In this document: positions 1 to 18,372 of the stretch, piece after piece | How the letters are laid out: each line of letters opens with the position of its first letter | Numbering within the stretch: position 1 is the stretch's first letter | Assembly: GCA_041651115.1 (NCBI GenBank) | Contig: JBAZJY010000002.1 | Coordinates: 73,846 to 137,845, forward strand | From: Candidatus Omnitrophota bacterium | Lineage (GTDB): Bacteria > Omnitrophota > Gorgyraeia > Gygaellales > Profunditerraquicolaceae | DNA length: 64,000 nt | Direction: 5' to 3' | The notes under the pieces: generated by a model | Database searches by the model: none | What the model was told of the DNA's origin: nothing | What the model saw: only the letters and a program-made list of their open reading frames with translations | Made by a program: the position numbers and the translations under genes

Positions 1-3000
1 AATGAATACGCTTCAGAGCTTATCCGGGAACTGATCATCCCAAAGCTTACCCGGGAAATAAATACTTCTAAGAAATACGCATCCCTCAGGCAGGTGTACT
101 ATTCTCTGATCCTGGCGCAATGGTTTAAAGCAAAATTCAATTCGGGCAGCGGCAAATATGAAAACCTCATAAATAGAAAAAACCTTTCCGGCCTGACTTC
201 GCAAATATTCTGGGATAAGCAATTTTACTTCCAGCAATATCAGGATTCATTCAATAAGGGCGAGTACAACCTGAAAGAAAATCGCTCCACTCCCTTTGGC
301 CAGACCATCCGCACCTATATGAGCGGCGGCCTTACCCTGGGCAATGAAATATCGTCAGCTATACAGGCTCAAACCATCGCTTCCAAACGCAGCAGCAGTC
401 CGCTTGCCAATAAAACTTTTAATCAGGCGGCAGAGATAGATGCAAACGGTAATATTAGGATAGCCGAAGGCAGTGTTTCTGCGCAAGAAGAGAATATCGC
501 TATTTTGCACGCGCTTATTAATCAGGGGCCTAAGGCATTTTTGTCCGGAGAAAAAGGCGATGAAAACAGGGATAGGGTAATCGGTATTGCCGAAAAATTT
601 GATTTCTACGTGGAGGAACTTTTAGACGAAGAGGATGAAGAAGATTTTTTTGAGTACGTTTTAGGGCTGGAAAAGCTGCTTAAGTTAAATCCCAGGGTCC
701 ATCAAGAGCCATCGGAGATGTTCGTCCATCTGGATAATCTTTCGCATAATCTGGGGCACATTAACAATCTTTTTAATATCGCGATCATAAGTTTCAATAA
801 AGTAGATGAAGTGGAATTAAGAACAGGGCAGATGAATATGTATCTTGCCGAGTACCAGGCCATAAGAAAACTGCTCTCCTGGGATGGCCTCAACAAAATT
901 AATCCGGAAGCCGTTAGCGACTTATTTACCGATACTATCCGTTATGTGGTGGGTTCGCGCGCGCTTTTTAAAGAAATAGGAGATATCTTAAATTCCAACA
1001 GGGACATGATAAGGGAAAAAGAAGAGGGACTGTATAGCCTGATAGACGGCTATCTGGAAAGAGCCAGGCTGGTTGATTCCGAATGCACCCATAATCTTGG
1101 GATCCTGAAACGGCTCAAGGAAGAAATATATGAGCCCGGAAAAAAAGAGCCGATTAACATTGGAGTTTCTGTCTACGAGGCTATTGAGCCATATTTGCAT
1201 AATGGCCATAGGGTCAAGTTTATTACGGATTTCCGGGATCAGGGAATGATGGTGCAGGCCAATGCTTTGCGCCTCTCCTATACATGGACTAATCTCATCG
1301 GGAATGCCATAGATGCCGTTAATAAATTCAAGCGTACTCCCGAAGGAAGAGGAGTCGATGGGATATTGACTGTTTCTGTCAGGCCGGTGCATACGGAGAA
1401 TACGGACATAATGGAAGTATCGTTTCAGGATAACGGCGGCGGTATTTCCAAGGCGATGAGCGAGAACGACAGGCTGTTTCTGCGCGGCGAATCCGACAAG
1501 CAGGGGGGCACAGGCAGGGGCCTTGCTTTGTGCAAAGAGGCTGCGGAATTTCACGGCGGGACTATAAGTGTTGAACCGAGGAGAGTGAGTGAATTTGACG
1601 ACAGGCCCGAGAAAACAGAAGATCCGAAGCGCGGCGCTAGATTTGTCATCCGCCTGCCCGTTGTTGCCAGCTCGCCGGTGGCTATAAGCGAGATCGCTCA
1701 AAAGGATAGCGATAAGATCACCCGGGAAGATAAGGCCGCCATGCTTAACCACGCGCGGCAAATGGATTTTTACGTCCAGCGCATAGAGGAAGAGAACGAT
1801 AGCCAAAACCTGAAAGCATATGCGACAGCGCTCGCAATTCTGGAAAAAGAAGGAGTTAAGCCGGCAGAAGGAGTTTACGCGGGCAAGCAAATAGATTTTA
1901 ACATCGTCAGCCACGATATCGGCCATATGATCATAGAAATGACCGTACTTCTCGGTATTTTGGAATTAGTGCCTGTAGAGAACGATCCGGCTGGTTATAA
2001 AAAGAGGGCATTGGAGCTGTGGGCTAAAATTCAGGCTTGGCAGGCAATCTTAGACTGGGAAAAAACCCTTGGCATTGCTCCCGGCATCCTCTCACGCATG
2101 ACAGAGGAGATTGGCAGCGATCTTGACAGCGTGGGCAATTTTTATAACGAGGTAAAAGATTATTTTAACCGGCATGTAGATAGTGAGATAGTGGCTGATT
2201 ATTCGGCGGCAGTAGACTTGCGCAGAGGAGAGAGAGAAATAATTGACTTTCTTCTTAGTGAGCTTAAGAACAACATATCAGATCCTTCAAGGGCCGCGGC
2301 CATAGATGAAAAATTTATTATCAATAAATTAGTGTGGTCTTATGAAAAACTAAAATCGGCTAACCTGAACTTTCAACTAAGGTTAAGAGCAGAAAATCTC
2401 CAAACATATGGAAACCCGCTGCGCGTTTATTCTATTTTTAAGAACCTGATCACTAATGCCGTAGATGAAGCAGCGGGGCTTGCCACTGGAAGCAAGTTTG
2501 TTAAAACGCCATCCGGTAAGTTTACAGAGGTTCGGCTTACCGATGAGCAGAAAAGGACTGTTGAAGAAAATAAAACCATCATTATCGCGAATAAGAACAT
2601 TAAAGAAGGCGACAAAGATTACGCGGAGTTCAGCATTGAAAACATAGCCTATATAACTCCGGAGATGAATGCGGAGTTATATGGCGGCAGAAAACTTTTT
2701 GCCAAAGGCCAAACCGGTAAAGAAAGCGGCACAGGCCTTGGCCTGGCCCTCATTGAAGAGATCGTTAAAGAGCACGGCGGAAGCGTTGATTATTACATTA
2801 AAGATATTCCCGGCGATGATACGCTTAAAAAGATACAATTTGTGGTAAAGCTGCCCGCGGTTTCCAGCTCGCCGGTCAGCGGCGATAAGGTTATCTTGAG
2901 CACGGCGGGAACAACAATCTCTTTATCTTCCGGAGACCAGGCCCGGATAGTAAGTGAGTTCCGGAGGCTGGCCAATCAAATTACTACGGAATTTTCGGAA

Positions 3001-6000
3001 GAAGATTTCCGCGAGAGCATGGGTTTAATTGTCGGCACGCATGAAAACGGAGCATATAGAATTACCAGGCTGGTTCCGATCACTGAGTTTGAAAAAGGCA
3101 GCAGCTATGATTTCCTTCTTCCCGGAAAGGCCCAGGTGATCCGGATCATTGAGAATGAACTGCGGAGCGGTGAACAGATCCTGGGTGATTACCATAATCA
3201 TTCTTATGAAAGACTGCGCAGTTTTCAGAAACCGGGCCCCAGTTCAGAGGATGCCATGGGAGGCGGATACTTGAATATTATCGGATACGAGAATAAGATC
3301 GCAAATAACCGCCTGAACATAGTTTTAGAGCCCGAATTGGACTTGGATAAGATAACCATGGATGAGCTGGCGAATTTTGACCCGTCTAATTCGCGGGTTA
3401 TCCTCTATCCTTACATATCGCCGAACAGGGGATTGGAGAGAAGGATTATCGAGCTGGATAAGATCTATTTGGATGCCTTGACAAAAGAAGTTAATTCCGG
3501 AGCGACCAGCTCGCCGATGAAATTGGGGGATCTTAAGAAATTAGCTCTCGGCGCAATGATGGCGTTTTATTTGTCCTGCTTGAGCTTCCATAACGTTAAT
3601 GCCCAAGTCAATGACACGCCGGCAATTGATTATTATTTTACCGTTAGCTCGCAGCTCCAGGATTCCATAAACAACTTAGTAAAGAAAGAGTTTTATGACA
3701 TAGTTTCGTTATCGCCAGACCAGATAAAGCAGCTGTTGACGGCAAAAGACCTTACGGAATTTAAGTCGGTGGCTGAATCTATGTTAGAGAAGAAGGGGTT
3801 AAGCCTGCCTTATTATGCACCGGAGGATATTGCGGATTTAGTATCTTCCTCAAAAACAGGGGACAGCGATATCCAGAGGCTAATCAGGATCAAAGGCGGC
3901 CTGAATTATCTCAGTCAGCATCATCCCTGGGTATTCAGGTTCGTTATGTTTAATGCCCAAAGAATAATTTTTGATTTTACTTATAATAAAAGCGGGGGAT
4001 ATGAAAATGAGCGCAAAATATATTACGGCGTTTTGCTTGACAACTATGCCATTGAAGAAATCGCCGCATTTCTGGCGCATGAGGCCGCGCATAGCTTCTT
4101 GGAGCTGATGGGAATGCCTGTAGGCGGGGCCGCAGGAGAGAGCGTTGCGATATATTTAGGTGATCTGATATTAAAAAACGCAAATATCAGGTTAGGCGCA
4201 GATAAATTTATCCTTAATTTGTCTTCTGAAGCGGCAAACAGAGGTCATTGGGGGCCGTGGCAAGATGCATATTATGAAGAAACCTATAATAAGGCCGGCA
4301 TTGAATTAAGGGATCATCTCAGGCACTTGGAATTTATTACTAAGCTGCCCGCAACATTGTTGGATATCATCATATTTGGCTCAAAAGACCAGTGGGAAAT
4401 TTATCCGGAATACAGGCGGCTGGGGCTCGATGCGCTTGGGGAGATATTAGAATCTGTTGAGTCGCAGCCGGTTGAAACCAAGGAATTCTTCGGAGTTTTA
4501 TTTGCCAACTATTTTGATGAATTGTGGAACGCGGGGGACGGGCTATATCGTGAATTGATACGCGCATATTTATTAAAAAACACAAACTACATCCCTGCGG
4601 CAAAACAACGGTTGATATTAGATGAGGTCGGCAATGCTCAAGTGGATGCCAGCTCGCCGGTGAAGGCTGCAGGGTTCTTGAAGACGACCGCGCTGTTATC
4701 AATGCTGTTTTTCCTGCCGGTGTTTGTCCAGCAGTCATTCAGCCAGAGCGCAAGGGCGCCTACCAATGTAGAGATGACGATATATATGTCGCGCGTAAAG
4801 GACCTTTCCGAGGCCAAAGACTTAGGCAGTTTATTAAAGATCATCAAAGACGATAAGGCCCATGCATTGTTTAAGATGCAGGCGATGGATGCCGTGCAGC
4901 GCATGCCTATGGTAATGAATAAGGCCTCGGACCTGATGAGGGCACTTGGCGCGATTGAAGACATTTATAATGATCCGCAGACCAGCAATCTAATAAACGG
5001 GAATACAGTCAGCTGGCTGGAACAGATCATGAAGAAATATGAAATTATCTGGTGGGGGGGTAAGGATACTCTCTTTGCGCCGATAGATGTTTATAAAGGC
5101 ACAGCAGAACTGATCCAGCAGATCGCTGCCGATCACCCGGATTTTATCAAGCCCGGGTCGTTGGCAGAATTCATCAGCAGGCAGCGCCAACCGCAGCTGC
5201 TTTATAAGCCGTGGCCGCATTATCCGGTTTATCAAAATCCGCAGTTTATCGCCGGGGTGCAAAAATATAACGCCGACACGCGGGAATACTATTCCATTTC
5301 CATGGCTGTTTATGACCTGCTGAATCTGGCCGGGGTAGGCTTAAGCGATACGACTATCAGCCAGGCAACGGATTATATTATGCAGCAGCGGCAGGCCTTT
5401 GGCCAACGGGTATTCTTTGATAAAGAGACCACAGCCATATTCATTGTTACCGAAGGAGAGGAATCTCAAAAGGACGTTGATCTGTTACGGGGCATTGCGC
5501 TGGACGCAGGAGTCTTGGAAGAAAATATCCATATTTTCCGGGGCATGAAAGATAAGCGTAAGCTCGCAACGCTTATTTCCGAGAGCACCGGGCCGCTAAC
5601 CATCGCCACAAATATGGAAGGGAATGAAGCGTCCTGGCGCATGGATCCCGAAGGCAATCAGCTTTCTTATGCAGAGTTTGCCAAATGGCTTGAGGCACGA
5701 AGTATTTTAACCAATGTAAATATTATTCTTGACGGCTGCCTGTCGACCAACCTTACAGAAGGGATGATCAATCTGCTTTACGATCCTTATGATCCTGCTT
5801 CCAAAGCAGCAGCTATCAGAAGGGGCCTGCCGACCGTAGTCTCAACTTCGGACGATAACCACCCTAGTTATGCGGACCAGCAAGGCCAGAGTTTCTTTTA
5901 TTCCGAGTTAAGCCTTATGCCGCGCGTTCCCGGAAAGCCGCTCCTGGGCAGGCAGATATTAGATACCGAGATTGCCGGATATAAACGGATGTTCGTTCTT

Positions 6001-9000
6001 GAAAATCCGCGCGTTTCGGTTTTTCTGCCGCTGGAGGGCAGGGAAGAGTTAGACCATATTTTCGGCGGCAAGACAAAATGGGGAAAAGTCTGGTTTTTCC
6101 CGATCGGCCAGGCTGAACCTAAGACCGATACGCTTAAGCCGGATGGCCTGCTGGCGCTCGGGCCAAAAGAAACCGTTACCAGCTCGCCGCTGAAGGCCGG
6201 CGGGTTCTTTAAAACAGCTGCGTTGGTATCAATGTTGGTGCTCCTGCCGGCATTGGGCCAGCCATTATTCGGCCAGCAAGCTGAACTTTTATCTACCGAT
6301 GCGCAAGGCCGCGCAGAGTTTAAGAACAATGTCTCTCTTACTTTGGCATCTTTAGGGGGAGCCGTTGATATTACGGCAGCTGCCGAGGCTGATCGCCCCC
6401 GTACATACAATTACAACCCTCAAACCGGGATGCTGGAGATTACATATGCTATTCCGGGATATGTCAATGTCAGCAAACCCAACGACGTAGTTACAATAAC
6501 CGCGCGAAAAATTGTTCCGCAGTTTGCCCTTATTACCGATGAATCGGGAAGCCAGGATAAAGAAGCCATGACCGAGCAGGGCCGTCAGTTCGCAAGAGTC
6601 CTGCAGTTTATCCAGAATAGATATCCTGGCATGCGCAATATCCGAATAAGCACGGTTACCGATCCCAACCCTCAAGTTTCCTCTTATTCCGGTGCAGCCG
6701 ATGCGCAAGATTATTTTAATCAGCCGGTATTCCAGAGCGACCCGTTACTGGGAGCCACGCATTTCGTAGAGGCAGTAAGAAATACAATCAAATCTTTTAA
6801 TAATAGCGCTCCGGGGATAATTTTAGCAGCCTCTTCAGATTTTGAACAGGATCCTTTGGCCAGAGGCAGTGATCCTGTAAAACCGGAAGATTTGAGAGCT
6901 CCTTTTTATGAAATGGCCGGTGAATTAGAGGAGCTTAATACCCACCTTTTTATTGCAACGCAAAATGCTGACAGTCAAAAGAACATCCGAATATTGACGG
7001 ATGAGTATCTTAAAAAGTGCGAGGCGGAGGGAAAGGCGCCGTATATTCATTACCAGGTTGTAGGCGCGGAAAATATGAGCGCCGCATTTACCTCTTTTAT
7101 CGCTGAATCTGATTTTCCTGAACAAATTCCTTTACCTACGCAGAATAAGGATATCAAGATAGATTTTCTTTCTTCTGGCCCCGGCGGGCAAGACGCCTCC
7201 GGAGCGGTCAACCCGCAACAGGGGTCCCTTGCCGGTAGTATAAAAATAAACGGAAGCACTTTAGTCCTAAAAGATTTATTTAAGGGATTAGGGGATGTTG
7301 ATTCCGCGCAGGTCGTTTTTTCGTATGAACCCCTGATAGTTCCGCTACCATTAACGCACACCCCGCAGGATATTTACCTGGTGAAAGATTATAGCGGCAG
7401 CGTCAGGGATATAAAGTGGAATGCTTTCCTGAAAGACTTACTTATTAAATTAAAAGAGAGAGGAGACCGGATTATCGGCGGGACATTCTTTGGCCCGGAA
7501 GTCATCTCGGTAGCCGGTTTTGATGGCGTTTTAAGCGCCGTGGAATCGCCCAGGGGTGGGTATACCCATGGCTGGGCGGCCTTAAAAAAGATCTTCCAGC
7601 AAATGGACGATATGCCCGATAATGCGACATTATATTTTATTTCAGACGGCGTATTTAATGACCGGGATTTTACTGACGGGGAGAAAGAACGGGTCAAGGA
7701 AAAATTCCTGCAGAAATTAAAGGATAAAAACATACGCTTTGTCTGGATCGCGCCCGAAAAGGCTTCTCCGGGCGTAACCAAATTTTTGTCAAATGCCGTT
7801 AATAACGGAAAAGCAGCGGACAATCTCCGGGCTTCTTTAAGCCCCTATGCCACGCTGTTGACATTTGCCGTTGCTACCAACCCGGACAGGGGAGTGGTGT
7901 TTTATAAAAACGAAGATACGATTTCCGGCCTGGCCGAAGCCACGGGGCTTTATAGCAGGAAAGTTATCGATGTCCCGGAAAAATTCCCCATAAGGCAGGT
8001 GCAAATATTGTTTCAGGATGAGGGGAAAGAAAAGCGGATAGTAGTAGATATGCAAGACACAGAAGAAAAGCCCGGTTCCAGCTCGCCGATCACCGAGTTA
8101 TCCGGCCAGCTGCCTGAAGAAGAAGCCGCGCAGCTGGAAATACCATTTGTATACCCCCAGAATGCGCCTACCGTCATCTTGCCGCTGAAACTCAACGGCG
8201 CTGATAAAAAAGAATTAATGGAATATAAGGGTACCCTGGAGATTTTAAAAGCGAAATTATCAAATTACCTTGAACATCCCGAATATCTTAAAGACAAAGG
8301 AAAGCTCGAAAGCGTTTTGCCTATCGCCAAAGAGGCAATCAGCGAATTTTTGGGAAAAGTAGCTGCTGCCGATAAGTTAAGGCCGGTTTATGATACCTTT
8401 GCCCGGGCGGATTTTGATGCTCCTATAAACACAGATTTTGGCGACCAGTTTAATGGTTTTGTTGCTTATGTTCAAATGGGGATAAACCAACTTGATTCGC
8501 AAGGATCCATTTCATCGCGTTTAATTTTGAGCCTGATAACTACGCTTACCCAAACCATTGAATTTTTAGAGAACGCAATTTTAATCTTTGAAAAACTCAC
8601 TGGCCCCTCAAAGAGCGAATTTAAAACCAAGCTGTCAAACGGAGGATCGGGAAGCCCTTCCGTCCTCATATTGGATCTCAATGACCTTTTAAGCAGTGTC
8701 GGCTCAGAGATCAGCTCGCCGGTAAAAACAGAAGCTACGAATGATAAGGGCGGTATTGATTTTAGGGCGTTGCCGGTTGTGACGCAGCCGGTTTTAGGGA
8801 CGGTTCTCAGCCAAGGAGAAAAACGTCCCCAAATGGGGACGCTTTTACCTTGGACTGAGAACCGTCCCTCTCTTGACCAGGAATTACAGCAGATTAGGAA
8901 GATGATTGATTCCGGAATTGTTCCCTCAAGCGAGAGAATCAAGGAATATGCGCAGACTTGCGGCAGCCAGGACATAGATAAAATATTATCTTGTATCGCG

Positions 9001-9159
9001 GATATCTTAAGACTGGAAGAAGAGCGGGTTGAGGAAACCGATCCGCAGTTAAGACAGTTGGTCATGGTGCTTGAATCGGATAAGCCGGCAAATGAGATGC
9101 AGCTGGCAGTAGCCGCGATCTCGTTTTCCGCGAAAGATCCGGTTCTGGTGAAACCTTAA
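1..9159 (+). CDS. Giant multidomain protein, 5'-partial (frame open from nt 1; >3,050 aa). It has two GHKL/HATPase_c ATPase modules, an HExxH zincin-like motif, a vWA domain with a DxSGS MIDAS motif, and SSP-punctuated modules with internal signal-peptide-like segments.
   Basis: Frame 1 is open from nt 1 to the TAA at 9157-9159; the ORF track starts it at an in-frame GTG at 94. HATPase_c N/G1/G2 boxes are visible twice (NLIGNAIDAV..DNGGGIS..GGTGRGLALCKE at ~1290-1540; NLITNAVDEA..GTGLGLALIEEIVKEHGG at ~2440-2770). HEAAH lies at 4078-4092, DYSGSV at 7387-7401, and SSP junctions at 1667, 2864, 3506, 4649, 6179, 8078 and 8712. Confidence 0.7.
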   Translation, partial: NEYASELIRELIIPKLTREINTSKKYASLRQVYYSLILAQWFKAKFNSGSGKYENLINRKNLSGLTSQIFWDKQFYFQQYQDSFNKGEYNLKENRSTPFGQTIRTYMSGGLTLGNEISSAIQAQTIASKRSSSPLANKTFNQAAEIDANGNIRIAEGSVSAQEENIAILHALINQGPKAFLSGEKGDENRDRVIGIAEKFDFYVEELLDEEDEEDFFEYVLGLEKLLKLNPRVHQEPSEMFVHLDNLSHNLGHINNLFNIAIISFNKVDEVELRTGQMNMYLAEYQAIRKLLSWDGLNKINPEAVSDLFTDTIRYVVGSRALFKEIGDILNSNRDMIREKEEGLYSLIDGYLERARLVDSECTHNLGILKRLKEEIYEPGKKEPINIGVSVYEAIEPYLHNGHRVKFITDFRDQGMMVQANALRLSYTWTNLIGNAIDAVNKFKRTPEGRGVDGILTVSVRPVHTENTDIMEVSFQDNGGGISKAMSENDRLFLRGESDKQGGTGRGLALCKEAAEFHGGTISVEPRRVSEFDDRPEKTEDPKRGARFVIRLPVVASSPVAISEIAQKDSDKITREDKAAMLNHARQMDFYVQRIEEENDSQNLKAYATALAILEKEGVKPAEGVYAGKQIDFNIVSHDIGHMIIEMTVLLGILELVPVENDPAGYKKRALELWAKIQAWQAILDWEKTLGIAPGILSRMTEEIGSDLDSVGNFYNEVKDYFNRHVDSEIVADYSAAVDLRRGEREIIDFLLSELKNNISDPSRAAAIDEKFIINKLVWSYEKLKSANLNFQLRLRAENLQTYGNPLRVYSIFKNLITNAVDEAAGLATGSKFVKTPSGKFTEVRLTDEQKRTVEENKTIIIANKNIKEGDKDYAEFSIENIAYITPEMNAELYGGRKLFAKGQTGKESGTGLGLALIEEIVKEHGGSVDYYIKDIPGDDTLKKIQFVVKLPAVSSSPVSGDKVILSTAGTTISLSSGDQARIVSEFRRLANQITTEFSEEDFRESMGLIVGTHENGAYRITRLVPITEFEKGSSYDFLLPGKAQVIRIIENELRSGEQILGDYHNHSYERLRSFQKPGPSSEDAMGGGYLNIIGYENKIANNRLNIVLEPELDLDKITMDELANFDPSNSRVILYPYISPNRGLERRIIELDKIYLDALTKEVNSGATSSPMKLGDLKKLALGAMMAFYLSCLSFHNVNAQVNDTPAIDYYFTVSSQLQDSINNLVKKEFYDIVSLSPDQIKQLLTAKDLTEFKSVAESMLEKKGLSLPYYAPEDIADLVSSSKTGDSDIQRLIRIKGGLNYLSQHHPWVFRFVMFNAQRIIFDFTYNKSGGYENERKIYYGVLLDNYAIEEIAAFLAHEAAHSFLELMGMPVGGAAGESVAIYLGDLILKNANIRLGADKFILNLSSEAANRGHWGPWQDAYYEETYNKAGIELRDHLRHLEFITKLPATLLDIIIFGSKDQWEIYPEYRRLGLDALGEILESVESQPVETKEFFGVLFANYFDELWNAGDGLYRELIRAYLLKNTNYIPAAKQRLILDEVGNAQVDASSPVKAAGFLKTTALLSMLFFLPVFVQQSFSQSARAPTNVEMTIYMSRVKDLSEAKDLGSLLKIIKDDKAHALFKMQAMDAVQRMPMVMNKASDLMRALGAIEDIYNDPQTSNLINGNTVSWLEQIMKKYEIIWWGGKDTLFAPIDVYKGTAELIQQIAADHPDFIKPGSLAEFISRQRQPQLLYKPWPHYPVYQNPQFIAGVQKYNADTREYYSISMAVYDLLNLAGVGLSDTTISQATDYIMQQRQAFGQRVFFDKETTAIFIVTEGEESQKDVDLLRGIALDAGVLEENIHIFRGMKDKRKLATLISESTGPLTIATNMEGNEASWRMDPEGNQLSYAEFAKWLEARSILTNVNIILDGCLSTNLTEGMINLLYDPYDPASKAAAIRRGLPTVVSTSDDNHPSYADQQGQSFFYSELSLMPRVPGKPLLGRQILDTEIAGYKRMFVLENPRVSVFLPLEGREELDHIFGGKTKWGKVWFFPIGQAEPKTDTLKPDGLLALGPKETVTSSPLKAGGFFKTAALVSMLVLLPALGQPLFGQQAELLSTDAQGRAEFKNNVSLTLASLGGAVDITAAAEADRPRTYNYNPQTGMLEITYAIPGYVNVSKPNDVVTITARKIVPQFALITDESGSQDKEAMTEQGRQFARVLQFIQNRYPGMRNIRISTVTDPNPQVSSYSGAADAQDYFNQPVFQSDPLLGATHFVEAVRNTIKSFNNSAPGIILAASSDFEQDPLARGSDPVKPEDLRAPFYEMAGELEELNTHLFIATQNADSQKNIRILTDEYLKKCEAEGKAPYIHYQVVGAENMSAAFTSFIAESDFPEQIPLPTQNKDIKIDFLSSGPGGQDASGAVNPQQGSLAGSIKINGSTLVLKDLFKGLGDVDSAQVVFSYEPLIVPLPLTHTPQDIYLVKDYSGSVRDIKWNAFLKDLLIKLKERGDRIIGGTFFGPEVISVAGFDGVLSAVESPRGGYTHGWAALKKIFQQMDDMPDNATLYFISDGVFNDRDFTDGEKERVKEKFLQKLKDKNIRFVWIAPEKASPGVTKFLSNAVNNGKAADNLRASLSPYATLLTFAVATNPDRGVVFYKNEDTISGLAEATGLYSRKVIDVPEKFPIRQVQILFQDEGKEKRIVVDMQDTEEKPGSSSPITELSGQLPEEEAAQLEIPFVYPQNAPTVILPLKLNGADKKELMEYKGTLEILKAKLSNYLEHPEYLKDKGKLESVLPIAKEAISEFLGKVAAADKLRPVYDTFARADFDAPINTDFGDQFNGFVAYVQMGINQLDSQGSISSRLILSLITTLTQTIEFLENAILIFEKLTGPSKSEFKTKLSNGGSGSPSVLILDLNDLLSSVGSEISSPVKTEATNDKGGIDFRALPVVTQPVLGTVLSQGEKRPQMGTLLPWTENRPSLDQELQQIRKMIDSGIVPSSERIKEYAQTCGSQDIDKILSCIADILRLEEERVEETDPQLRQLVMVLESDKPANEMQLAVAAISFSAKDPVLVKP

Positions 9160-9342: not shown

Positions 9343-9954
<612 letters not shown>

Positions 9955-9957
9955 ATT

Positions 9958-10905
9958 ATGACCTGGACAAAAAAAGATCTATTGGGCCTGGAATACCTAA
10001 GCCGCGAAGAACTGGAATTGATCCTGGCAACCGCGGAATCCTTTAAAGAAGTTTCCAGCCGCGAGATCAAAAAAGTCCCTGCCTTGCGCGGAAAGACCGT
10101 AGTGAATTTATTCTATGAGCCGTCTACGCGCACAAGGGTTTCTTTTGAGGTTGCCGCAAAAAGGCTGTCTGCCGACGTAATTAATATTGCCACGGAAACT
10201 TCCAGCGTAAAGAAAGGAGAAACGCTTATTGATACGGGTAAGAACATACAGGCGCTCAAGGCGGATATTATCGTGATGCGCCATAATTATTCCGGAGCAG
10301 CGGCAATGCTGGCGCGCAGCCTTGATATCAGCGTAGTTAATGCCGGAGACGGCTGGCATGAGCATCCTACGCAGGCGCTGCTGGATATTTTTACCCTGAA
10401 GGAAAAACTGGGAAAGATCGCAGGTTTAAACGTAACCATTGTTGGAGATATCGCCCATTCCCGCGTTGCCCGTTCAAACATCTGGGGTTTGACTAAGCTG
10501 GGCGCAAAAGTAACGGTTTGCGCCCCGGCCATGATTATCCCGCCGGCAATTGAGCAAATGGGGGCTTATGTTACCAGTGATATTGATAAAGCGCTTGCCT
10601 CTGCCGACGCAGTGAATGTCTTGCGCATGCAGTTTGAGCGCGATGAACAAAATGCCTTTCCAAAACAGTTGGAATATTTTAAGAATTTCGGGATCACCGT
10701 TGATCGCTTGAAAAAAGCAAAGAAAGACATCATCGTCATGCATCCCGGCCCGATCAATCGCGGCATTGAAATGTCCAGTGAAGTTGCAGACGGCGCCAAT
10801 TCCGTAATTTTAGAGCAGGTGACCAACGGCATTGCCGTGCGCATGGCAGTGCTTTTCTTGGTTGCCCAGGCAAGAGAGAAGGGTAATGCAAAAAATACTG
10901 ATTAA
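9958..10905 (+). CDS. pyrB: Aspartate carbamoyltransferase catalytic subunit.
   Basis: STRTRVSFE and HPTQALLD motifs; 315 aa. Confidence 0.92.
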   Translation: MTWTKKDLLGLEYLSREELELILATAESFKEVSSREIKKVPALRGKTVVNLFYEPSTRTRVSFEVAAKRLSADVINIATETSSVKKGETLIDTGKNIQALKADIIVMRHNYSGAAAMLARSLDISVVNAGDGWHEHPTQALLDIFTLKEKLGKIAGLNVTIVGDIAHSRVARSNIWGLTKLGAKVTVCAPAMIIPPAIEQMGAYVTSDIDKALASADAVNVLRMQFERDEQNAFPKQLEYFKNFGITVDRLKKAKKDIIVMHPGPINRGIEMSSEVADGANSVILEQVTNGIAVRMAVLFLVAQAREKGNAKNTD

Positions 10906-12169
10906 GAACGGCAAGGTTATTGACCCGGCGCAAAATATCAACGGAGAAACCCTGGATATCCTGGTGCAGTCCGGAAAAATAGCCAAGCTCGCTAAAAATA
11001 TTAAGGCAGATGCCGATAAAGTAATTGATGCCTCGGGAAAGATCGTCATGCCTGGTATCGTAGATATGCACGTGCATTTAAGGGAGCCGGGCAGGGAAGA
11101 TAAAGAAACCGTGGCCAGCGCTACAGCCGCGGCATTAAAGGGCGGGGTAACGTCGGTGCTGGCAATGCCGAATACCCAGCCGGCAATGGACACTAAAGAA
11201 AGCCTGATATTATTAAAGAAGATTGTTAGGGCTTCCGGCCTTTGTAATGTTTTTATCTGCGCTGCGATCACCAAGGAAAGGCAGGGCAAAGAATTAACCG
11301 ATATCCCAGGGCTTAATAAGTCAGGCGCGATCGCCATATCAGACGACGGCGCGTCAGTAGATGACGAAAACTTGTTTTTGGCAGCGATGAAAAAGGCAAA
11401 GGCCGCCGGTATCCCGGTGATCTGCCACTCCGAAGATAAAAAACTTTCCGGTAACGGTGTAGTTAACCGGGGGATCATCTCCACTAAACTTGGCTTGCGC
11501 GGAATTTCCAGAGAGTCGGAATATACAAGGGTTGAGCGCGATATTAAACTGGCAGAAAAGGCAAAGGCAACAATCCACATTGCTCATGTCAGCTGCCGGG
11601 AGTCAGTGGAGCTCATCAAGCAGGCGAAAAAAAGAGGGGTCAGGGTAACCGCGGAAACTGCCCCGCATTATTTTTCTTTGGACCAGGACGCGCTAGCTGG
11701 CTACGATACAAATCTTAAAATGAACCCGCCGCTTAGAGAGGCCGCGGATGTGGAGGCAATAAAGCAGGGGTTGAAGAGCGGGGTGATTGATGCGATCGCC
11801 TCTGACCATGCCCCGCATACAGAGAATGAAAAGGACATTGAATTTGACCGCGCTGAATTCGGGGTGATCGGCCTGGAAACCGAACTTGCCGCCGGCATTA
11901 CCGAGCTGGTGCAAAAAGGAGTCCTGGATTGGCCGGGCCTGGTAAAAAAATTCTGCCTTAATCCGGCAAAAATATTAGGTATAGACAGGGGTACTTTACA
12001 AATCGGCAAACCGGCAGATATCATGGTTGTTTCGCCCAAAGATGAATGGATAGTGCAAAAGCATGGACTCGCCTCCAAATCCAAGAACTCCGCGTTCATC
12101 GGCAAAAAACTAACCGGCGTTGCCGAGTATACTGTCTGCAACGGAAATATCGCATATCAAAGGCTGTAA
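10886..12169 (+). CDS. pyrC: Dihydroorotase.
   Basis: DMHVHLREPG and SDHAPH metal-binding motifs. The ATG at 10886 (MQKILIKNGKVIDP) overlaps the pyrB end; the track ORF begins earlier at an alternative start. Confidence 0.88.
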   Translation: MQKILIKNGKVIDPAQNINGETLDILVQSGKIAKLAKNIKADADKVIDASGKIVMPGIVDMHVHLREPGREDKETVASATAAALKGGVTSVLAMPNTQPAMDTKESLILLKKIVRASGLCNVFICAAITKERQGKELTDIPGLNKSGAIAISDDGASVDDENLFLAAMKKAKAAGIPVICHSEDKKLSGNGVVNRGIISTKLGLRGISRESEYTRVERDIKLAEKAKATIHIAHVSCRESVELIKQAKKRGVRVTAETAPHYFSLDQDALAGYDTNLKMNPPLREAADVEAIKQGLKSGVIDAIASDHAPHTENEKDIEFDRAEFGVIGLETELAAGITELVQKGVLDWPGLVKKFCLNPAKILGIDRGTLQIGKPADIMVVSPKDEWIVQKHGLASKSKNSAFIGKKLTGVAEYTVCNGNIAYQRL

Positions 12170-12174
12170 AAGCA

Positions 12175-12203
12175 TTGAATATCGCCCACAATAAAGCTAT
12201 AAT
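12175..12203 (+). promoter_or_regulatory. Near-consensus promoter (TTGAAT-17-TATAAT) ending 8 nt before the EndoQ ATG, implying a leaderless or near-leaderless transcript.
   Basis: ttgaat at 12175-12180, a 17-nt spacer, tataat at 12198-12203, and ATG at 12212. Confidence 0.45.
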
Positions 12204-12211
12204 ACTATTCT

Positions 12212-13453
12212 ATGGAATTTATCGCTGATTTCCACATTCACTCAAGATACTCGCGCGCCACATCCAAGGATATGGATGTCAAGCATCTGGCGGAATGGGC
12301 AAAATTAAAGGGCATCACCCTGATGGGCACGGGTGATTTTACCCATCATTTGTGGCTTGAAGAGCTAAGAAATAACTTAGAAGACCTTGGCAATGGCCTG
12401 TTCAAATATAATGATATACATTTTATCCTCACCAGCGAGATCAGCAGTATCTATTCCAAAAAGGGGAAGACCTACCGCATCCATAATATGGTCTTCAGCC
12501 CTTCGCTTAAGACTACGGATAAGATCAATTATAAGCTTTCACAGTGCGGCAACCTTGCTTCTGACGGCAGGCCGATACTGGGCTTAGACGCGGCAGAGCT
12601 TGCGCGTATTGTCTTCGATATTGACGAGAACTGCATGGTCGTTCCCGGCCATATCTGGACACCATGGTTTTCCCTCTTCGGGTCAATGTCCGGCTTTGAC
12701 CGCATTGAAGATTGCTTTGAAGACCAGGCGCCGAAGATCTTCGCTTTGGAAACCGGCCTCTCCAGCGACCCGGCAATGAACTGGCGTTTAAGCGCGCTGG
12801 ATAAGTTCACCTTGATCAGCAATTCCGACAGCCACAGCCCGTCAAAGATCGGCAGAGAAGCAAATGTATTTGACTGTGATCTGGATTATAAAACGATCCG
12901 GGAAGTGCTTAAGACCAAGGACCAAAAGAGGTTTTTATACACGATTGAATTTTTCCCGGAAGAGGGCAAATACCATTATGACGGCCACCGTAACTGCGAT
13001 ATCAGATGGTCACCTAAAGAAACAAAACAGCATAACGGGAAATGCCCTAAGTGCAACAAGCCGGTTACTGTGGGGGTGATGAATCGCGTTGACCAGCTGG
13101 CAGACCGGCCGGAAGGATATAAGCCGTCCAATAGCATTCCCTTTAAGAATCTTATCCCCTTTGAGGAGATCATTGCCGAGGCAAAGGGCGTGGCGTCCAC
13201 TTCTGTCAGCGTAGAGCGGGACTATCATAGCCTGCTTGCCAAATTTGGCACAGAATTCAATATTCTGCTGCGCGCATCAGAAGATGAACTGCGCAAGGGC
13301 CTGCCGTCAAAAGTCGCGGAAGGAGTTTTGCGGGTGCGCAAGGGCAAAGTGAATATTAACCCCGGGTTTGACGGAGAATACGGCAAAGTCGCCATTTTTG
13401 GCGAAAAAGATAAGCCGACAGCAGAAGGTGAAAAGCAATTAAGCTTGTTTTAG
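12212..13453 (+). CDS. Endonuclease Q (EndoQ) homolog. It has a PHP-like N-terminal domain and a C-terminal zinc finger.
   Basis: The N-terminus FIADFHIHSRYSRATSKDMDVKHLAEWAKLKGITLMGTGD closely resembles the archaeal EndoQ N-terminus. GKCPKCNKP is a Zn-finger near the C-terminus. Confidence 0.7.
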   Translation: MEFIADFHIHSRYSRATSKDMDVKHLAEWAKLKGITLMGTGDFTHHLWLEELRNNLEDLGNGLFKYNDIHFILTSEISSIYSKKGKTYRIHNMVFSPSLKTTDKINYKLSQCGNLASDGRPILGLDAAELARIVFDIDENCMVVPGHIWTPWFSLFGSMSGFDRIEDCFEDQAPKIFALETGLSSDPAMNWRLSALDKFTLISNSDSHSPSKIGREANVFDCDLDYKTIREVLKTKDQKRFLYTIEFFPEEGKYHYDGHRNCDIRWSPKETKQHNGKCPKCNKPVTVGVMNRVDQLADRPEGYKPSNSIPFKNLIPFEEIIAEAKGVASTSVSVERDYHSLLAKFGTEFNILLRASEDELRKGLPSKVAEGVLRVRKGKVNINPGFDGEYGKVAIFGEKDKPTAEGEKQLSLF

Positions 13454-13458
13454 TATAT

Positions 13459-13530
13459 GCGCCTGTGGCCCAACGGATAGGGCACTAGCCTCCGGAGCTG
13501 GTGGTACAGGTTCGATTCCTGTCAGGCGCA
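13459..13530 (+). tRNA. tRNA-Arg (anticodon CCG).
   Basis: Cloverleaf folded by hand: acceptor GCGCCTG/CAGGCGC, anticodon loop CTCCGGA, T-loop TTCGATT. No encoded CCA. Confidence 0.85.
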
Positions 13531-13541
13531 CTTTTATAACA

Positions 13542-13623
13542 GCGGGTCCTGTCTGCTGATTTACCCCGCTGCGCTCAAGCTTGCGCTTTCGCTCGCGGGG
13601 TCCCCCAATCAGCAGCCACCCGC
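13542..13623. repeat. Copy A of a structured ~85-nt intergenic repeat (long imperfect hairpin; central AAGCTTGCGCTTTCG loop). It is MITE-like or a small structured RNA.
   Basis: About 85% identical to 37638-37731. Internal arms pair as ctgctgatt/aatcagcag, accccg/cggggt and gcgggt/acccgc. It lies immediately 3' of tRNA-Arg. Confidence 0.6.
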
Positions 13624-13652
13624 GCTAACGAATAAGTGTTTATGAGAATGCC

Positions 13653-14105
13653 ATGACTAAGAAAATCATAGGGGTAATTGGCGGAAGACAGTGTAATAAG
13701 GAAGTGGAGCAAACAGCCATAAAATTAGGCAAAAAATTGGCTAAAGTGGCTGATTTACTTGTTTGTGGCGGTTTAAGTGGAGTAATGGAGGCGGTAAGCA
13801 AGGGTTTTAAGGCTGCAGGAGGCACAACCATAGGTATTCTACCGGGTTACCACAAGACCGAAGCTAATTCTTTTGTTGATATAGTCATTCCTACGGGAAT
13901 GGGATTAGCAAGAAATGTGCTGGTGGTCAAGGCAGCCGATGTTGTAGTAGCCTTGCCCGGAGAAGCAGGTACGCTTTCTGAAATCGCCTATTGCCTGCAA
14001 TTCGGCGTTCCCGTAGTAAGTTTTAATTCCTGGGATATCCCCGGCGTGATCAAGGCCAAAACTATTGAGCAAACAATCAAAGAAGTCAGGAAAAAGTTAA
14101 AATGA
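13653..14105 (+). CDS. LOG / TIGR00725-family Rossmann-fold protein (predicted nucleotide 5'-monophosphate nucleosidase-like).
   Basis: GGxxGxME core ([12 protein letters not shown]) and PGExGTLSE motif; 150 aa. Confidence 0.6.
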
Positions 14106-15724
14106 AAAAGAAAGTGATTATCTTAGGTGGCGGCCCGAACCGGATCGGCCAGGGCATTGAATTTGATTACTGCTGCTGCCACGCTTCCTATGCGCTTGAG
14201 GAAGAAGGCATTGAAAGTATTATGGTCAACTGTAATCCCGAGACCGTATCCACGGATTACGATACCTCTGACCGGCTGTATTTTGAACCGATAACAATAG
14301 AAGACGTGATGAACATTGTTGAATTGGAAAAGCCGATCGGCTTGATCGTGCAATTCGGCGGCCAGACCCCGCTTAACCTGGCAGTCGGCCTGCGCAAGTT
14401 GGGCGTGAATATCCTCGGTACCAGCGCAGACAGCATAGACATTGCCGAAGACCGTAAACGTTTTAAAGAAATGCTCCACAAGCTAAGCCTGTTGCAGCCG
14501 GATAACGGCACGGCGTTTAATTTCAAAGAGGCCGAAGCAGCGGCAAAGCGGATCGGTTATCCGGTGCTGGTGCGGCCTTCCTATGTGCTCGGCGGCAGGG
14601 CAATGGAGATAGTTTATGACGAATCTATGCTGGAAAAATTCATTGCCGAGGCGGCGCGGGTATCGGGCGAACATCCGGTATTGATCGATAAGTTCCTTGA
14701 AGATGCCATTGAAGTTGACGTGGACTTGATCGGCGACGGAGAAACTTTTGTCATCGGCGGGATCATGGAGCATATTGAAGAAGCGGGGATCCACTCCGGA
14801 GATTCGGCAATGGCCTTGCCGACATTTACCCTCTCCGGCGGGATTTTAAATAAAGTCAGGCAGGCAACATACGAAATGGCAAAAGAACTTAAGGTCAGAG
14901 GCCTGATGAATGTCCAGTATGCGGTTAAAGACGATAAAGTCTATGTGCTGGAGGTTAACCCGCGGGCATCGCGCACCGTTCCGTTCGTGTCTAAGGCGAT
15001 CGGCGTGCCACTGGCAAAACTGGCGACTAAAGTAATGATGGGGAAAAAACTAAAAGACTTCAAGTTTACCAAAGAAATTATCCCGGATTACTTTTCCGTT
15101 AAAGAATCGGTTTTCCCCTTCAGCCGCTTCTCCGGAGTAGATGTGATCCTGGGACCGGAAATGAAATCCACCGGAGAAGTAATGGGCATAGACAGTGATT
15201 TTGGCAGGGCGTATATCAAGAGCCAGTTGGCAGCCGGCCAGGATCTGCCGGTCAAGGGAAATGTTTTTATCTCGGTAAGAGACCGCGATAAGCGCGCGAT
15301 AGCTTTTATCGCTAAAAAACTACAAGACCTGGGATTCAAGATTCTTGCTACCTCCGGCACAGCTTCGGCGCTGGAGAAAAATGGCATTAAAGTCAAGGTC
15401 CTGCGTAAGATCGCCGAGGGCAGGCCGAATATATTGGATCTAATGAAAGACGGGAAGGTTCAGCTGGCGATCAACACGCCTTCAGGCAGGGTGCCGCGCC
15501 AGGATGAAGTGGCCATCCGTTCGCGCGTTATTCGTTACGGCATACCTTATACCACGACGATTTCCGGCGCCCAGGCAACTACAAATGGCATTGAGGCGCT
15601 GATGAAAAGGGGCCTGGATGTAAAGCCGCTGCAGGAATACCATAAAAAAATCAAAAGTCAAAAATCAAAAGTCAAAACAAGATGGCCTAAGGAAGATAAA
15701 AATGCCGGAACTTCCAGAAGTTGA
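14102..15724 (+). CDS. carB: Carbamoyl-phosphate synthase large subunit, C-terminal half (second ATP-grasp plus MGS-like domain). This is a split carB.
   Basis: Starts [28 protein letters not shown], which is the second repeat of CarB. An MGS-like domain (ILATSGTAS) sits at the C-terminus. The low-complexity tail overlaps fpg. Confidence 0.85.
15646..15673 (+). repeat. Tandem 14-bp duplication (AAAAATCAAAAGTC x2, 28 bp) in the carB 3' tail.
   Basis: Read directly. Removing one copy restores a TAA at 15688-15690 ahead of the fpg RBS. Confidence 0.6.
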
Positions 15725-16502
15725 GACAATAAAGAGGGAATTAGAACAGGTGTTGGCGGGTAAGAAGATCATCGACGTGATCGTCAATAACCCGAAGGTC
15801 ATCCGCGAGCCGAAGAAAGACGGTTTTGTCAAAGGCTTAAAAGGCGCCGGGATCAGGAATGTTTTAAGAAAAGCAAAGCTTTTGATCATTGAGCTTTCTA
15901 CCGGTAAATCCCTGGCCATTCATCTAAAAATGACCGGCCAGCTGATCTATCCGGGTAACGGCAAGTCCAGCAGGGTAAGCTTCAAGCTTTCCGACGGCAG
16001 ATTGCTGGATTTTAATGACCAGCGCCTGTTCGCGGAATTGCGGCTGGTTAATGACTGGCGCGCCTTAAAGTTCGTGCGGGAGTTGGGGCCTGAACCGTTT
16101 GATATTACCCGGGAACGTTTCAAGGCAATGCTTACCGATAAAAAAACAAAGATAAAGCCGCTGATCATGGACCAGCAATTCATTTCCGGTATCGGTAATC
16201 TGTATGCTGCCGAAGCGTTATTCAGGGCAAAGATAGATCCTTCGCGCCCGGCATGCAGCCTGAAAGATGCCGAAAAAGATTTGTTGTTTAAGGAAATAAA
16301 AGATACATTGAAAGAGGCGATAAAATACGGCGGCTCGTCCGTTGACCAATATGTGCGTTCAACGGGTAAGCCCGGCAATTACGCGAAATACCACCGGGTT
16401 TATGACCGCCTGGGCAAGCCTTGCCCAATATGTAAAACGCCGGTAAAGCGAATTGCCTTGGGTGGCAGGGGAACATATTTTTGCCCTAAATGCCAGAAAT
16501 AA
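15702..16502 (+). CDS. mutM: Formamidopyrimidine-DNA glycosylase.
   Basis: N-terminal MPELPEVE catalytic motif and a C-terminal zinc finger CPICKTP..CPKCQK. Confidence 0.9.
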
Positions 16503-16518
16503 CGGGAGCTAGCAGAAG

Positions 16519-17211
16519 ATGAAAAAACGTATTAAGATAAACGGAGTCATCATTTTTATCTGCGTCATCGCAATGATGCTTTTTCCTAATGTATTTTTGC
16601 GCATGAGCTTCAACAAGATAGATATTTTAACGGGCATACTAGGATTAGAGCTTATGTTTTTCGGGCTGCTGCTAAGGGTTTCCAGCCGCGGTTATAAATC
16701 CGAACTTTCCGTAGGGGGCAATAATCTTGTGCGCACCGGCCCATACTCGTTAGTAAGGAACCCGATGTACCTGGGTATTTGTTGCATTGCCCTCGGTATT
16801 ATCATGGTGCTATTCCAGTGGTGGACGCTGGCCGTATTCGGTATATTTTTTGCGTTGCGTTACCTTACCTTGATCCGGGTTGAAGAGAAAGGCCTTCTTG
16901 AAAAATTCGGACACCGTTACAGCGAATATCAGAAAGACGTGCCGCGGATATTGCCCAGGCTGAACACGCGGCTGAATAAGGACCTGCTGAATTGCCTGCC
17001 GTTAAAGCTGAGCTGGATAAAAAAAGAACTGAACAGCATTTTGATCATTGTCCCGGGGGTCTTAGGCATTGATATGTGGAAGAAATTCATATTATGCGAA
17101 AACGACCTCGCGCTGCCGTATTTTTTGATCCTTAGCTGGATAATCTGCGCGCTGATTGTCCTGGCAGCTGTTCTGGTAAAAAATTATGAAGGCTACCCAA
17201 AGCAAAAGTAA
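16519..17211 (+). CDS. Isoprenylcysteine carboxyl methyltransferase (ICMT) / phospholipid methyltransferase-family membrane protein.
   Basis: Multi-TM protein with the RTGPYSLVRNPMYLG family motif. Confidence 0.65.
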   Translation: MKKRIKINGVIIFICVIAMMLFPNVFLRMSFNKIDILTGILGLELMFFGLLLRVSSRGYKSELSVGGNNLVRTGPYSLVRNPMYLGICCIALGIIMVLFQWWTLAVFGIFFALRYLTLIRVEEKGLLEKFGHRYSEYQKDVPRILPRLNTRLNKDLLNCLPLKLSWIKKELNSILIIVPGVLGIDMWKKFILCENDLALPYFLILSWIICALIVLAAVLVKNYEGYPKQK

Positions 17212-17998
17212 GATCTTAAGCAATTTAAAAATATCCGGGAACTATTTTAAGCTCCAGGTTATCTGTCCTTGCGTTGCTGCTGCAGCTCGGCCCGGGCAGT
17301 TTGTGATGGTGCAGGTGAATAACGGCATTGAGCCGCTGCTGCGCCGGCCGCTGGGCGTGCATAGGCTTCCGGGGCAGAAAAAAAATATCGTAGAGCTGCT
17401 TTATGAAGTTGTGGGCAGGGGAACAGGTCTTCTTTCACGCAAAAAGCCAGGCGAAAGCATAGATATTATCGGCCCGCTGGGCAATGGCTTTGATTATGGG
17501 CCAGCCTACGGCCGGTACAGGCCGCAGGTTTTGGTAGCCGGGGGAATGGGGGTAGCGCCGTTAACTTTTCTTGCAGAAAAGTTAACGGAAGGCAAAAGGC
17601 AAAAGGCAAAAGGCAAAATTATAGTTCTGCTTGGGGCAAAGACCAAAGATCAGATTCTTTGTGAAAAAGAATTCAAAAAAATAGGTTGTGAAGTGAGGAT
17701 TGCTACCGATGATGGTTCGCGTGGATTTAAGGGCAGAGTTACCGATTTATTGAACCGCGAATTACGCACCACGGATTACGCACCGTGGACTATTTATGCC
17801 TGCGGGCCAGGGCCGATGTTAAGGGCAATATCCTGTTTGTCAAAAGACCGCAGCCTGCCTGCGCAGCTTTCTTTGGAAGCGCATATGAGCTGCGGCTTTG
17901 GCGCCTGTTTAGGCTGCGTGGTTAGTACTACCGGCGGATATAAAAGAGTATGTAAAGAAGGCCCGGTTTTTTCGGCCGAGGAAATTATCTGGGAATAA
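17186..17998 (+). CDS. pyrK: Dihydroorotate dehydrogenase electron-transfer subunit.
   Basis: FAD/NAD-binding fold with a C-terminal 2Fe-2S cysteine cluster CGFGACLGCVV. Confidence 0.85.
   Translation: MKATQSKSKILSNLKISGNYFKLQVICPCVAAAARPGQFVMVQVNNGIEPLLRRPLGVHRLPGQKKNIVELLYEVVGRGTGLLSRKKPGESIDIIGPLGNGFDYGPAYGRYRPQVLVAGGMGVAPLTFLAEKLTEGKRQKAKGKIIVLLGAKTKDQILCEKEFKKIGCEVRIATDDGSRGFKGRVTDLLNRELRTTDYAPWTIYACGPGPMLRAISCLSKDRSLPAQLSLEAHMSCGFGACLGCVVSTTGGYKRVCKEGPVFSAEEIIWE
17591..17618 (+). repeat. (GGCAAAA)x4 heptanucleotide tandem repeat inside pyrK.
   Basis: Read directly. It encodes KRQKAKGK in a linker that is longer than in typical PyrK. Confidence 0.8.
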
Positions 17999-18011
17999 AC
18001 TGGAGGGGCAC

Positions 18012-18371: not shown

Positions 18372-18372
18372 T

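Follow-up and report, generated by a model that had tools for sequence, protein, structure and literature searches.

Giant open reading frames (ORFs) of Omnitrophota carry many predicted transmembrane (TM) helices and may undergo proteolysis, with their cleavage points stated to be unknown (10.1101/2023.11.21.568195; 10.64898/2026.06.07.730766; PMC10066038). Helix counts reach 42 in a protein of 39,678 residues and 147 in one of 147,155 residues (West-Roberts et al./Seymour et al.), and one Omnitrophota giant-ORF paper sets aside internal signal-peptide calls, attributing them to the division of the sequence into chunks. Whether such very long proteins persist as a single chain or yield many products is a published open question, its analysis blocked by the missing cleavage points. 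Here we describe a 3,295-codon gene from the same phylum, whose last 3,052 codons and stop open a 64,000-nt stretch of a Candidatus Omnitrophota genome (GCA_041651115.1, contig JBAZJY010000002.1, positions 73,846 to 137,845; hereafter the window). Its product comprises a conserved head, seven cargo modules and a conserved tail, separated by Ser-Ser-Pro (SSP) tripeptides, and three of the cargo modules begin with signal-peptide-like segments (SP1–SP3). We tentatively read it as a polyprotein that is cut at or near the junctions and whose modules carry their own export signals, an interpretation that we place just short of an even chance.

The gene shares with the Omnitrophota giant proteins, including those of the 'Archaeovorin' type, its phylum, the presence of many unrelated and poorly annotated domains in a long ORF, roughly one hydrophobic segment per ~500–1,000 residues, kinase-type together with peptidase-type domains, and a proposal of post-translational cleavage; it differs in length, at 3,295 codons versus >7,000 to 147,000. 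The literature on these proteins (West-Roberts 2023, 2026; Seymour 2023) contains no description of the head and tail domains, of the junction motif or its identity at the DNA level, or of internal Sec, Tat (twin-arginine) or lipoprotein signals. A literature search returned no paper joining 'Omnitrophota' with 'polyprotein'.

Several better-known systems resemble parts of this architecture. MARTX toxins of Vibrio have conserved ends around variable, unrelated effectors, which lack signal peptides and are released within linkers by a clan CD cysteine protease domain. The window protein likewise combines constant ends with variable modules, and the module met most often here is a clan CD-fold domain; it differs in lacking RTX or glycine-rich repeats, for which Pfam and NCBIfam gave no match in its modules, and any sign of type I secretion, in its N-terminal Sec-type signal, and in a clan CD-fold domain without the catalytic His. 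Polyproteins of the Flaviviridae yield several mature proteins from one ORF, with internal signal sequences cut by signal peptidase. The proposed likeness lies in the single ORF, the short lineage-specific junction motifs and the internal signals serving the part that follows, whereas the gene described here is a cellular bacterial one, has one hydrophobic segment per junction rather than a paired stop-transfer and signal, and is conserved at its junctions down to the codon. The VENN motif of CdiA and PxxxxDPxGL of Rhs proteins mark the border between constant and variable parts and are believed to act as recombination points and, in Rhs, also as self-cleavage sites. Such polymorphic toxins share a short conserved motif at a constant/variable boundary, but the present genes have many junctions each and a constant C-terminal end, and the window gene has no immunity gene downstream. 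Finally, the gingipains and HagA of Porphyromonas derive from secreted polyproteins cut at repeated Arg or Lys junctions by clan CD proteases; the proposed likeness lies in a bacterial secreted polyprotein with repeated junction residues, but the modules of the Porphyromonas proteins are related adhesins, their sites are Arg or Lys, and they lack internal signal peptides.

Signal-like segments behind SSP junctions

SSP occurs eight times in the window protein, compared to 0.69–0.74 occurrences expected from composition (Poisson P = 1.2e-6), and partitions it into units of recognisably different kinds (Table 1). A single 10-mer, CAGCTCGCCG, encodes seven of the eight. Codon bias was rejected as its cause: the codon usage of the large gene predicts AGC-TCG-CCG for ~2% of SSPs, and this spelling is used in 0 of the 59 SSPs outside family genes. 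Sequences flanking CAGCTCGCCG are unrelated from one junction to another, and Rfam identifies only tRNAs in the window; on these grounds we rejected the idea that the junction sits in a conserved structure of RNA or DNA. The single other exact copy of CAGCTCGCCG in the 64 kb (43967–43976, minus strand, inside another ORF) is probably a chance match, since ~0.1 copies are expected. An alternative genetic code was ruled out, as the standard bacterial code leaves the ORF free of stops and TCG, AGC and CCG serve as normal codons in other places, and so was an assembly artefact: the same pattern is present in JGI, ENA and NCBI assemblies, and a 10-nt repeat cannot mislead an assembly made with k = 141.

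The original prediction had singled out three of these SSPs as followed by internal secretion signals. The three SSPs are real, with codons at 3508–3516, 4651–4659 and 6181–6189, 2 nt downstream of where they had been placed, and the three peptides behind them read exactly as quoted. We judged the segments by sequence features (charge, Kyte-Doolittle hydropathy and length of the uncharged run). SP1–SP3 begin at the first residue after an SSP junction, at residues 1416, 1797 and 2307 of the continuous ORF rather than at the polypeptide N-terminus, and so would be N-terminal only if the chain were cut at the junction. Their n-regions are basic, each with a net charge of +2 (MKLGDLKK, VKAAGFLK and LKAGGFFK, respectively), and are followed by uncharged runs of 23–24 residues, compared to 23 in the true N-terminal signal of the protein, MPKKIKKIISIILCFCFLFNQAGFAQA, an ordinary signal peptide encoded upstream of the window. 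The best 13-residue hydropathy means are 1.80 for SP1, 2.56 for SP2 and 2.48 for SP3, against 2.67 for the N-terminal signal. Over 19 residues the means of SP1–SP3 fall to just 1.4–1.8, making the cores short for a membrane helix; they end in Pro or Gly and give way to a polar c-region of small residues. The basic n-region and hydrophobic core claimed for each segment are therefore borne out, while the claimed AxA-like sites are less uniform. SP1 has a canonical site (VNA|Q); candidate sites in SP2 are SFS|Q or QSA|R and in SP3 ALG|Q or QQA|E, where SFS|Q and ALG|Q give the best −3/−1 fits and the sites originally marked carry Gln at −3. A Tat motif is absent from all three segments.

Hydrophobic stretches of this strength are rare in the protein. 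Only four places in the 3,295 residues attain a 13-residue hydropathy of ≥1.9. Two of them are the N-terminal signal and a helix within the second kinase-like module; the others are SP2 and SP3, whose peaks begin 8 and 5 residues after an SSP. SP2 and SP3 share 51% identity over a stretch of 41 residues (E = 6e-8); because this likeness does not extend beyond the AxA-like site, the mature parts behind the two segments being unrelated, they behave like a separable export tag. All three segments are N-positive, implying N-in/C-out polarity, so that within one uncut chain they could not form an alternating multi-pass topology; insertion of SP2 would violate the positive-inside rule, and the N-terminal signal would export two ATP-dependent kinase-type modules. 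Judged from sequence, SP1–SP3 are most likely real Sec-type export signals, each belonging to the module that follows.

Relatives carry comparable segments. The original prediction had raised the conservation of the unit formed by an SSP and a hydrophobic segment in orthologues; homologous modules of P0002, P0003, P0004 and P0020 keep the signal-like start at 27–42% identity. P0002 is laid out as head, SSP, signal-like segment, HExxH module (40% identity to module 4), SSP and tail; its segment (VAIASFKKMNLIVATALSLLVSTGFDINAQ; SSPVAIASFKKMNLIVATALSLLVSTGFDINAQ) is the counterpart of SP1, and the homologues of the von Willebrand factor A (VWA)-like module in P0003, P0004 and P0020 open with a basic, then a hydrophobic, then an AQ-type segment. 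Other loci have signals of different classes. Internal twin-arginine signals occur in L009, L031, L048, L081 and L016 (SRRNFLK, SRRGFLK, TRRGFLG twice and TRRDFMK), where the motif leads into a stretch of moderate hydrophobicity with an AxA site; by a rough estimate ~0.03 would be expected by chance. Two of these internal segments score 20.8 and 21.2 bits against Pfam TAT_signal (cut-off 22.7), and two of the internal Tat signals come straight after an SSP. In L057, an SSP is followed by IKKPSIFALAPIILSALLSLSSC, a lipoprotein-type (lipobox) signal.

A conserved head and tail around variable cargo

The full product of the gene, P0001 (3,295 residues), was called on the 487-kb metagenome contig k141_3084633 of ENA ERZ27247363. 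Its head domain has 340 homologues, every named one of which belongs to Candidatus Omnitrophica or Omnitrophota, and has no Pfam, NCBIfam or PDB match; the tail has no match in Pfam, NCBIfam or PDB, and a text search for GGIDF/GGIDL returned nothing relevant. A metagenome scan with the head alignment yielded 79 loci at 54–68% identity, in which many head genes span 1,000 to >3,700 codons. When the P0001 modules were used as tblastn queries, matches to the head came from 83 loci and matches to the tail, at 42–52% identity, from 55, and none of the inner modules was found in related loci except for one JAB-like match. Because head and tail recur and inner modules do not, we describe the family as a constant head and a constant tail enclosing hypervariable cargo. 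Relatives have HEAT repeats, phosphoglycerate kinase and an enolase N-domain among their cargo, and across the family the tail carries the motif GGID[FL]RxLP. Secreted heads fused across SSP-type junctions to cytoplasmic glycolytic enzymes were seen in P0114, P0128 and L007:10001-11913.

Junctions are likewise a family trait. The density of SSP is 1.20 per 1,000 residues in 78 related head genes versus 0.28 in other ORFs of the same loci, and an SSP-type junction usually lies 5–25 residues ahead of the tail. The family consensus is [A/S/V/G/T]-S-S-P-[V/L/I/A/M]; the +1 residue is aliphatic at 139 of 161 sites (86%), and Glu and Gly are rare there. Relatives of low GC content spell SSP with a mixture of AGY and TCN codons, and this use of both Ser codon families indicates that the junction peptide itself is under selection.

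At the DNA level, the sequence AGCTCGCCG spells 36 of the 162 junction SSPs, spread over at least 7 different genomes, and 0 of the 59 SSPs in other ORFs. A k-mer scan revealed that each gene has a junction of its own, identical in DNA within the gene and different between lineages (ASSP, AASP, ASSA and KDGG). Besides its seven copies in the window gene, CAGCTCGCCG is present nine times in L034; CGCCGCCTCGCCG (AASPV) occurs ten times in L063, CCGCCTCGCCG five times in L023, GCCAGCTCGGCG (ASSA) four times in L065 and AAAGACGGCGG (KDGG) eight times in L055. Gene-specific identical junction DNA was also recorded for L016, L070 and L071, and recurrent junction peptides of their own characterise P0008 (APGEG) and P0031 (SSSG). 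In L055, L070 and L073, neighbouring paralogous head-tail genes have the same 11-mer in common, with 0 copies on the other strand. Such identity within a genome may point to in-frame shuffling of cassettes.

Other features of gene organisation emerged from the same loci. Tandem head-tail genes, in which a tail ends just before the next head, are found in L055, L070, L073, L082/L083 and L021. Exactly one in-frame stop (TAG or TAA) interrupts an otherwise open head-to-tail frame in L012, L059, L052 and L067; these stops could represent nonsense mutations of recent origin, sites of read-through or a natural division into two genes. In L067 the part comprising module and tail is a separate gene that starts in the same frame at TAG|ATG, so a split form of the gene exists. 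P0008 (3,668 residues) appears by eye to hold an intein-like sequence (CVSADTLLPI ... GIFAHNT) between two copies of its own junction APGEGEG. P0034 and P0005 are large modular proteins whose head is of a more distant type, whose C-terminus is of the GGIDLNPANMNL type, and which have a signal-like segment directly behind the head; since they share this layout, the architecture may reach beyond the head family.

Cleavage, anchoring and shuffling as readings of the junction

In the polyprotein interpretation, the gene would resemble an operon whose proteins are synthesised as a single chain and then cut at, or directly beside, each junction. Modules that expose a signal at their new N-terminus (HExxH, caspase-fold and VWA-like) would be exported, and modules without one (the two kinase-type ATPases and the JAB-like module) would stay in the cytoplasm; a cut after Pro would leave M/V/L-K... 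as the new N-termini. For this gene we infer cleavage itself, its exact place and timing, and the enzyme, which would probably act in trans.

The gene's own peptidase-like modules are poor candidates for that enzyme. Release by the protein's own HExxH domain had been suggested in the original prediction and found no support: tblastn with this module gave 0 matches in the 79 loci, including the SSP-rich relatives, and the small family members P0099 and P0114 have SSP junctions and no peptidase module. On this sequence evidence the HExxH module of the large gene is not a general junction-cutting enzyme. The C-terminal 290 residues of module 5 (5320–6189) are predicted to adopt a caspase/legumain-type fold by alignment-based AlphaFold (pLDDT 76, pTM 0.78; the single-sequence model, at pLDDT 36, was unusable), and the best 50 PDB matches listed by Foldseek are caspases, metacaspases, legumains and a CHAT protease, with E down to 1e-5. 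The catalytic Cys, invariant among homologues, is kept (LDGCLS, 5728–5745), but the His of the His-Cys dyad is replaced by Glu (NMEGN, 5611–5625) where homologues have an HG motif, and this copy is therefore probably inactive. Active-looking versions of the fold, mostly behind HEAT-like repeats, make up ~28 of the 34 non-self matches of an exhaustive protein search. In module 3, HNH at 3193–3201 is followed by PSSED after a 12-residue spacer, longer than usual in HxH...S..D.

Several observations weigh against cleavage as the function of the junction. SSP-rich relatives conserve none of the large gene's three peptidase-like modules (JAB-like, HExxH and caspase-fold), and the caspase-fold module lacks its catalytic His. 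SP1, the weakest segment, is of marginal hydrophobicity, and ordinary membrane proteins often contain internal signal anchors. Of the 49 internal hydrophobic segments counted across the family, just 6 fall ≤30 residues behind an SSP (3.3-fold over the 1.8 expected, P ~0.01), and two of those six belong to the window gene itself. Junctions drift between orthologues (ASSSI in P0099 versus VSSPI in P0108; SSSP versus SGSP), which would not be expected of an essential cleavage site. Lastly, a protease site needs no identical codons, so part of the junction signal must have a cause other than a protease.

The original prediction had left open whether the segments are TM anchors of one giant membrane protein or the starts of released modules. 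An uncut, membrane-anchored protein, in which SP1–SP3 are TM or signal-anchor helices and SSP a flexible linker, strikes us as unlikely without being far-fetched. Published surveys treat such segments in Omnitrophota giant proteins as TM helices, at ~1 per 1,000 residues; Ser/Pro-rich linkers are frequent in multidomain extracellular proteins, the junctions of some relatives sit within longer S/P/A-rich stretches, and cleavage is a proposal both in the literature and here. The features of the segments fit this poorly, however: their shared N-positive polarity cannot alternate, their cores of ~13 residues are short for a membrane-spanning helix, and the Tat-type and lipobox-type signals of relatives make little sense as internal anchors. 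Behind an N-terminal signal, moreover, kinase-type ATPase, phosphoglycerate kinase and enolase modules of an uncut protein would sit outside the cytoplasm, and a mere linker needs no identical codons. The polyprotein is thus the better supported of the two, if indirectly, through polarity, core length, conservation and the Tat and lipobox relatives. Alternatively, the junction may be mainly a DNA device, or the scar of one, for shuffling cassettes in frame among paralogous head-tail genes, with the SP segments as functionless leftovers of formerly independent secreted genes. A DNA-level role of this kind, for which polymorphic toxins with motifs such as CdiA VENN offer a precedent, is compatible with cleavage and fits the codon identity of junctions within genes and its divergence between lineages, the 11-mers common to neighbouring paralogues, the confinement of AGCTCGCCG to family junctions, the hypervariable cargo and the drift in orthologues. 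As the main explanation we consider it rather improbable: signal features retained at 27–42% identity argue for continuing selection, and the peptide is selected too, as seen in its +1 preference and mixed Ser codons. Moreover, the 10-mer has no recombinase, inverted repeats or conserved flanks with it, and no gain or loss of a module with its breakpoint at a junction was seen.

Separate synthesis of the modules, by internal initiation, mRNA cutting at the 10-mer or frameshifting followed by termination and reinitiation, appears very improbable. Conservation at the nucleotide level would suit it, as would the codons after the signal-bearing junctions, which are ATG, GTG and CTG and overlap an out-of-frame TGA (ATGA, GTGA, CTGA) as in coupled genes. 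Internal initiation was rejected as a general mechanism, because no Shine-Dalgarno-like sequence lies at a working distance — the window's real genes have ATG starts preceded by A-rich or GGAG leaders — and many junctions have GTC, GTA, ATC or GCN at +1, none of them a start codon. Frameshifting with reinitiation was rejected as well, since out-of-frame stops are not enriched over 159 junctions (0.45 versus a background of 0.40); in the window, 4 of the 7 10-mer junctions (5 of the 8 SSPs) have such a stop ≤5 codons from the first Ser codon, a local pattern that results from the M/V/L-Lys module starts. Cutting of the mRNA would presumably leave messages without stop codons, and the finding of tRNAs only by Rfam speaks against a mechanism at this level.

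We therefore retain the polyprotein as the favoured interpretation, chiefly because the N-in polarity of SP1–SP3 misfits an alternating multi-pass topology. A broader generalisation, which we regard as doubtful though worth stating, is that Omnitrophota encode true cellular polyproteins, or collapsed operons, in which a genome-specific junction serves both as cut site and as a site of in-frame cassette shuffling among paralogues, with some modules carrying Sec, Tat or lipoprotein signals. Were this true, many of the 'transmembrane helices' of giant proteins of 10,000–150,000 residues would be signal peptides of modules, altering the interpretation of predicted membrane topology. A junction motif that is four-fold enriched in head genes, spelled identically per genome and sometimes followed by a Sec-, Tat- or lipoprotein-type signal offers concrete sites to seek in existing and future proteomic data, and the rule would help to divide giant proteins into units for structure prediction. 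If cutting and cassette shuffling are both real, they would constitute a way of organising and diversifying secreted proteins that is, as far as we know, new for bacteria.

Cargo modules and gene neighbourhood

The large ORF lies in frame 1 of the window, with its 5′ end beyond the window and its stop at 9157–9159; the coordinates of its modules, junctions and signal-like segments are collected in Table 1. A whole-protein scan of the genome contigs returned an unrelated HATPase as its sole match.

Table 1. Features of the head-cargo-tail gene in window coordinates (position 1 is the first letter of the window)
Feature	Position	Strand	Remarks
Head-cargo-tail gene	1..9159	+	ORF, standard bacterial code
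Head domain, C-terminal part	1..402	+	head begins upstream of window, behind MPKKIKKIISIILCFCFLFNQAGFAQA
Junction SSP	394..402	+	divergent codons AGC AGT CCG
Cargo module 1, histidine-kinase-type ATPase (HATPase_c)	403..1677	+	without signal-like start
Junction CAGCTCGCCG	1668..1677	+	A-SSP-V
Cargo module 2, second HATPase_c module	1678..2874	+	without signal-like start
Junction CAGCTCGCCG	2865..2874	+	S-SSP-V
Cargo module 3, weakly JAB/JAMM-like	2875..3516	+	Prok-JAB 18.4 bits, cut-off 25
Junction CAGCTCGCCG	3507..3516	+	T-SSP-M
Cargo module 4, HExxH module	3517..4659	+	HEAAH at 4078-4092; no Pfam family
SP1 MKLGDLKKLALGAMMAFYLSCLSFHNVNA	3517..3603	+	signal-peptide-like, starts cargo module 4
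Junction CAGCTCGCCG	4650..4659	+	A-SSP-V
Cargo module 5, helical region and predicted caspase/legumain-fold domain (5320-6189)	4660..6189	+	510 residues
SP2 VKAAGFLKTTALLSMLFFLPVFVQQSFSQSA	4660..4752	+	signal-peptide-like, starts cargo module 5
Junction CAGCTCGCCG	6180..6189	+	T-SSP-L
Cargo module 6, VWA-like	6190..8088	+	VWA_CoxE 23.2 bits, just under cut-off
SP3 LKAGGFFKTAALVSMLVLLPALGQPLFGQQA	6190..6282	+	signal-peptide-like, starts cargo module 6
Junction CAGCTCGCCG	8079..8088	+	S-SSP-I
Cargo module 7, no family recognised	8089..8721	+	211 residues; without signal-like start
Junction CAGCTCGCCG	8712..8721	+	I-SSP-V
Tail domain	8722..9156	+	145 residues; GGIDFRALP at 8749-8775

No protease, secretion or immunity gene adjoins the large gene. 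Downstream of it, at 9415–19314, lies a pyrimidine biosynthesis cluster encoding a PyrR-like phosphoribosyltransferase, aspartate carbamoyltransferase, dihydroorotase, a fragment of the carbamoyl-phosphate synthase large chain and dihydroorotate dehydrogenase.

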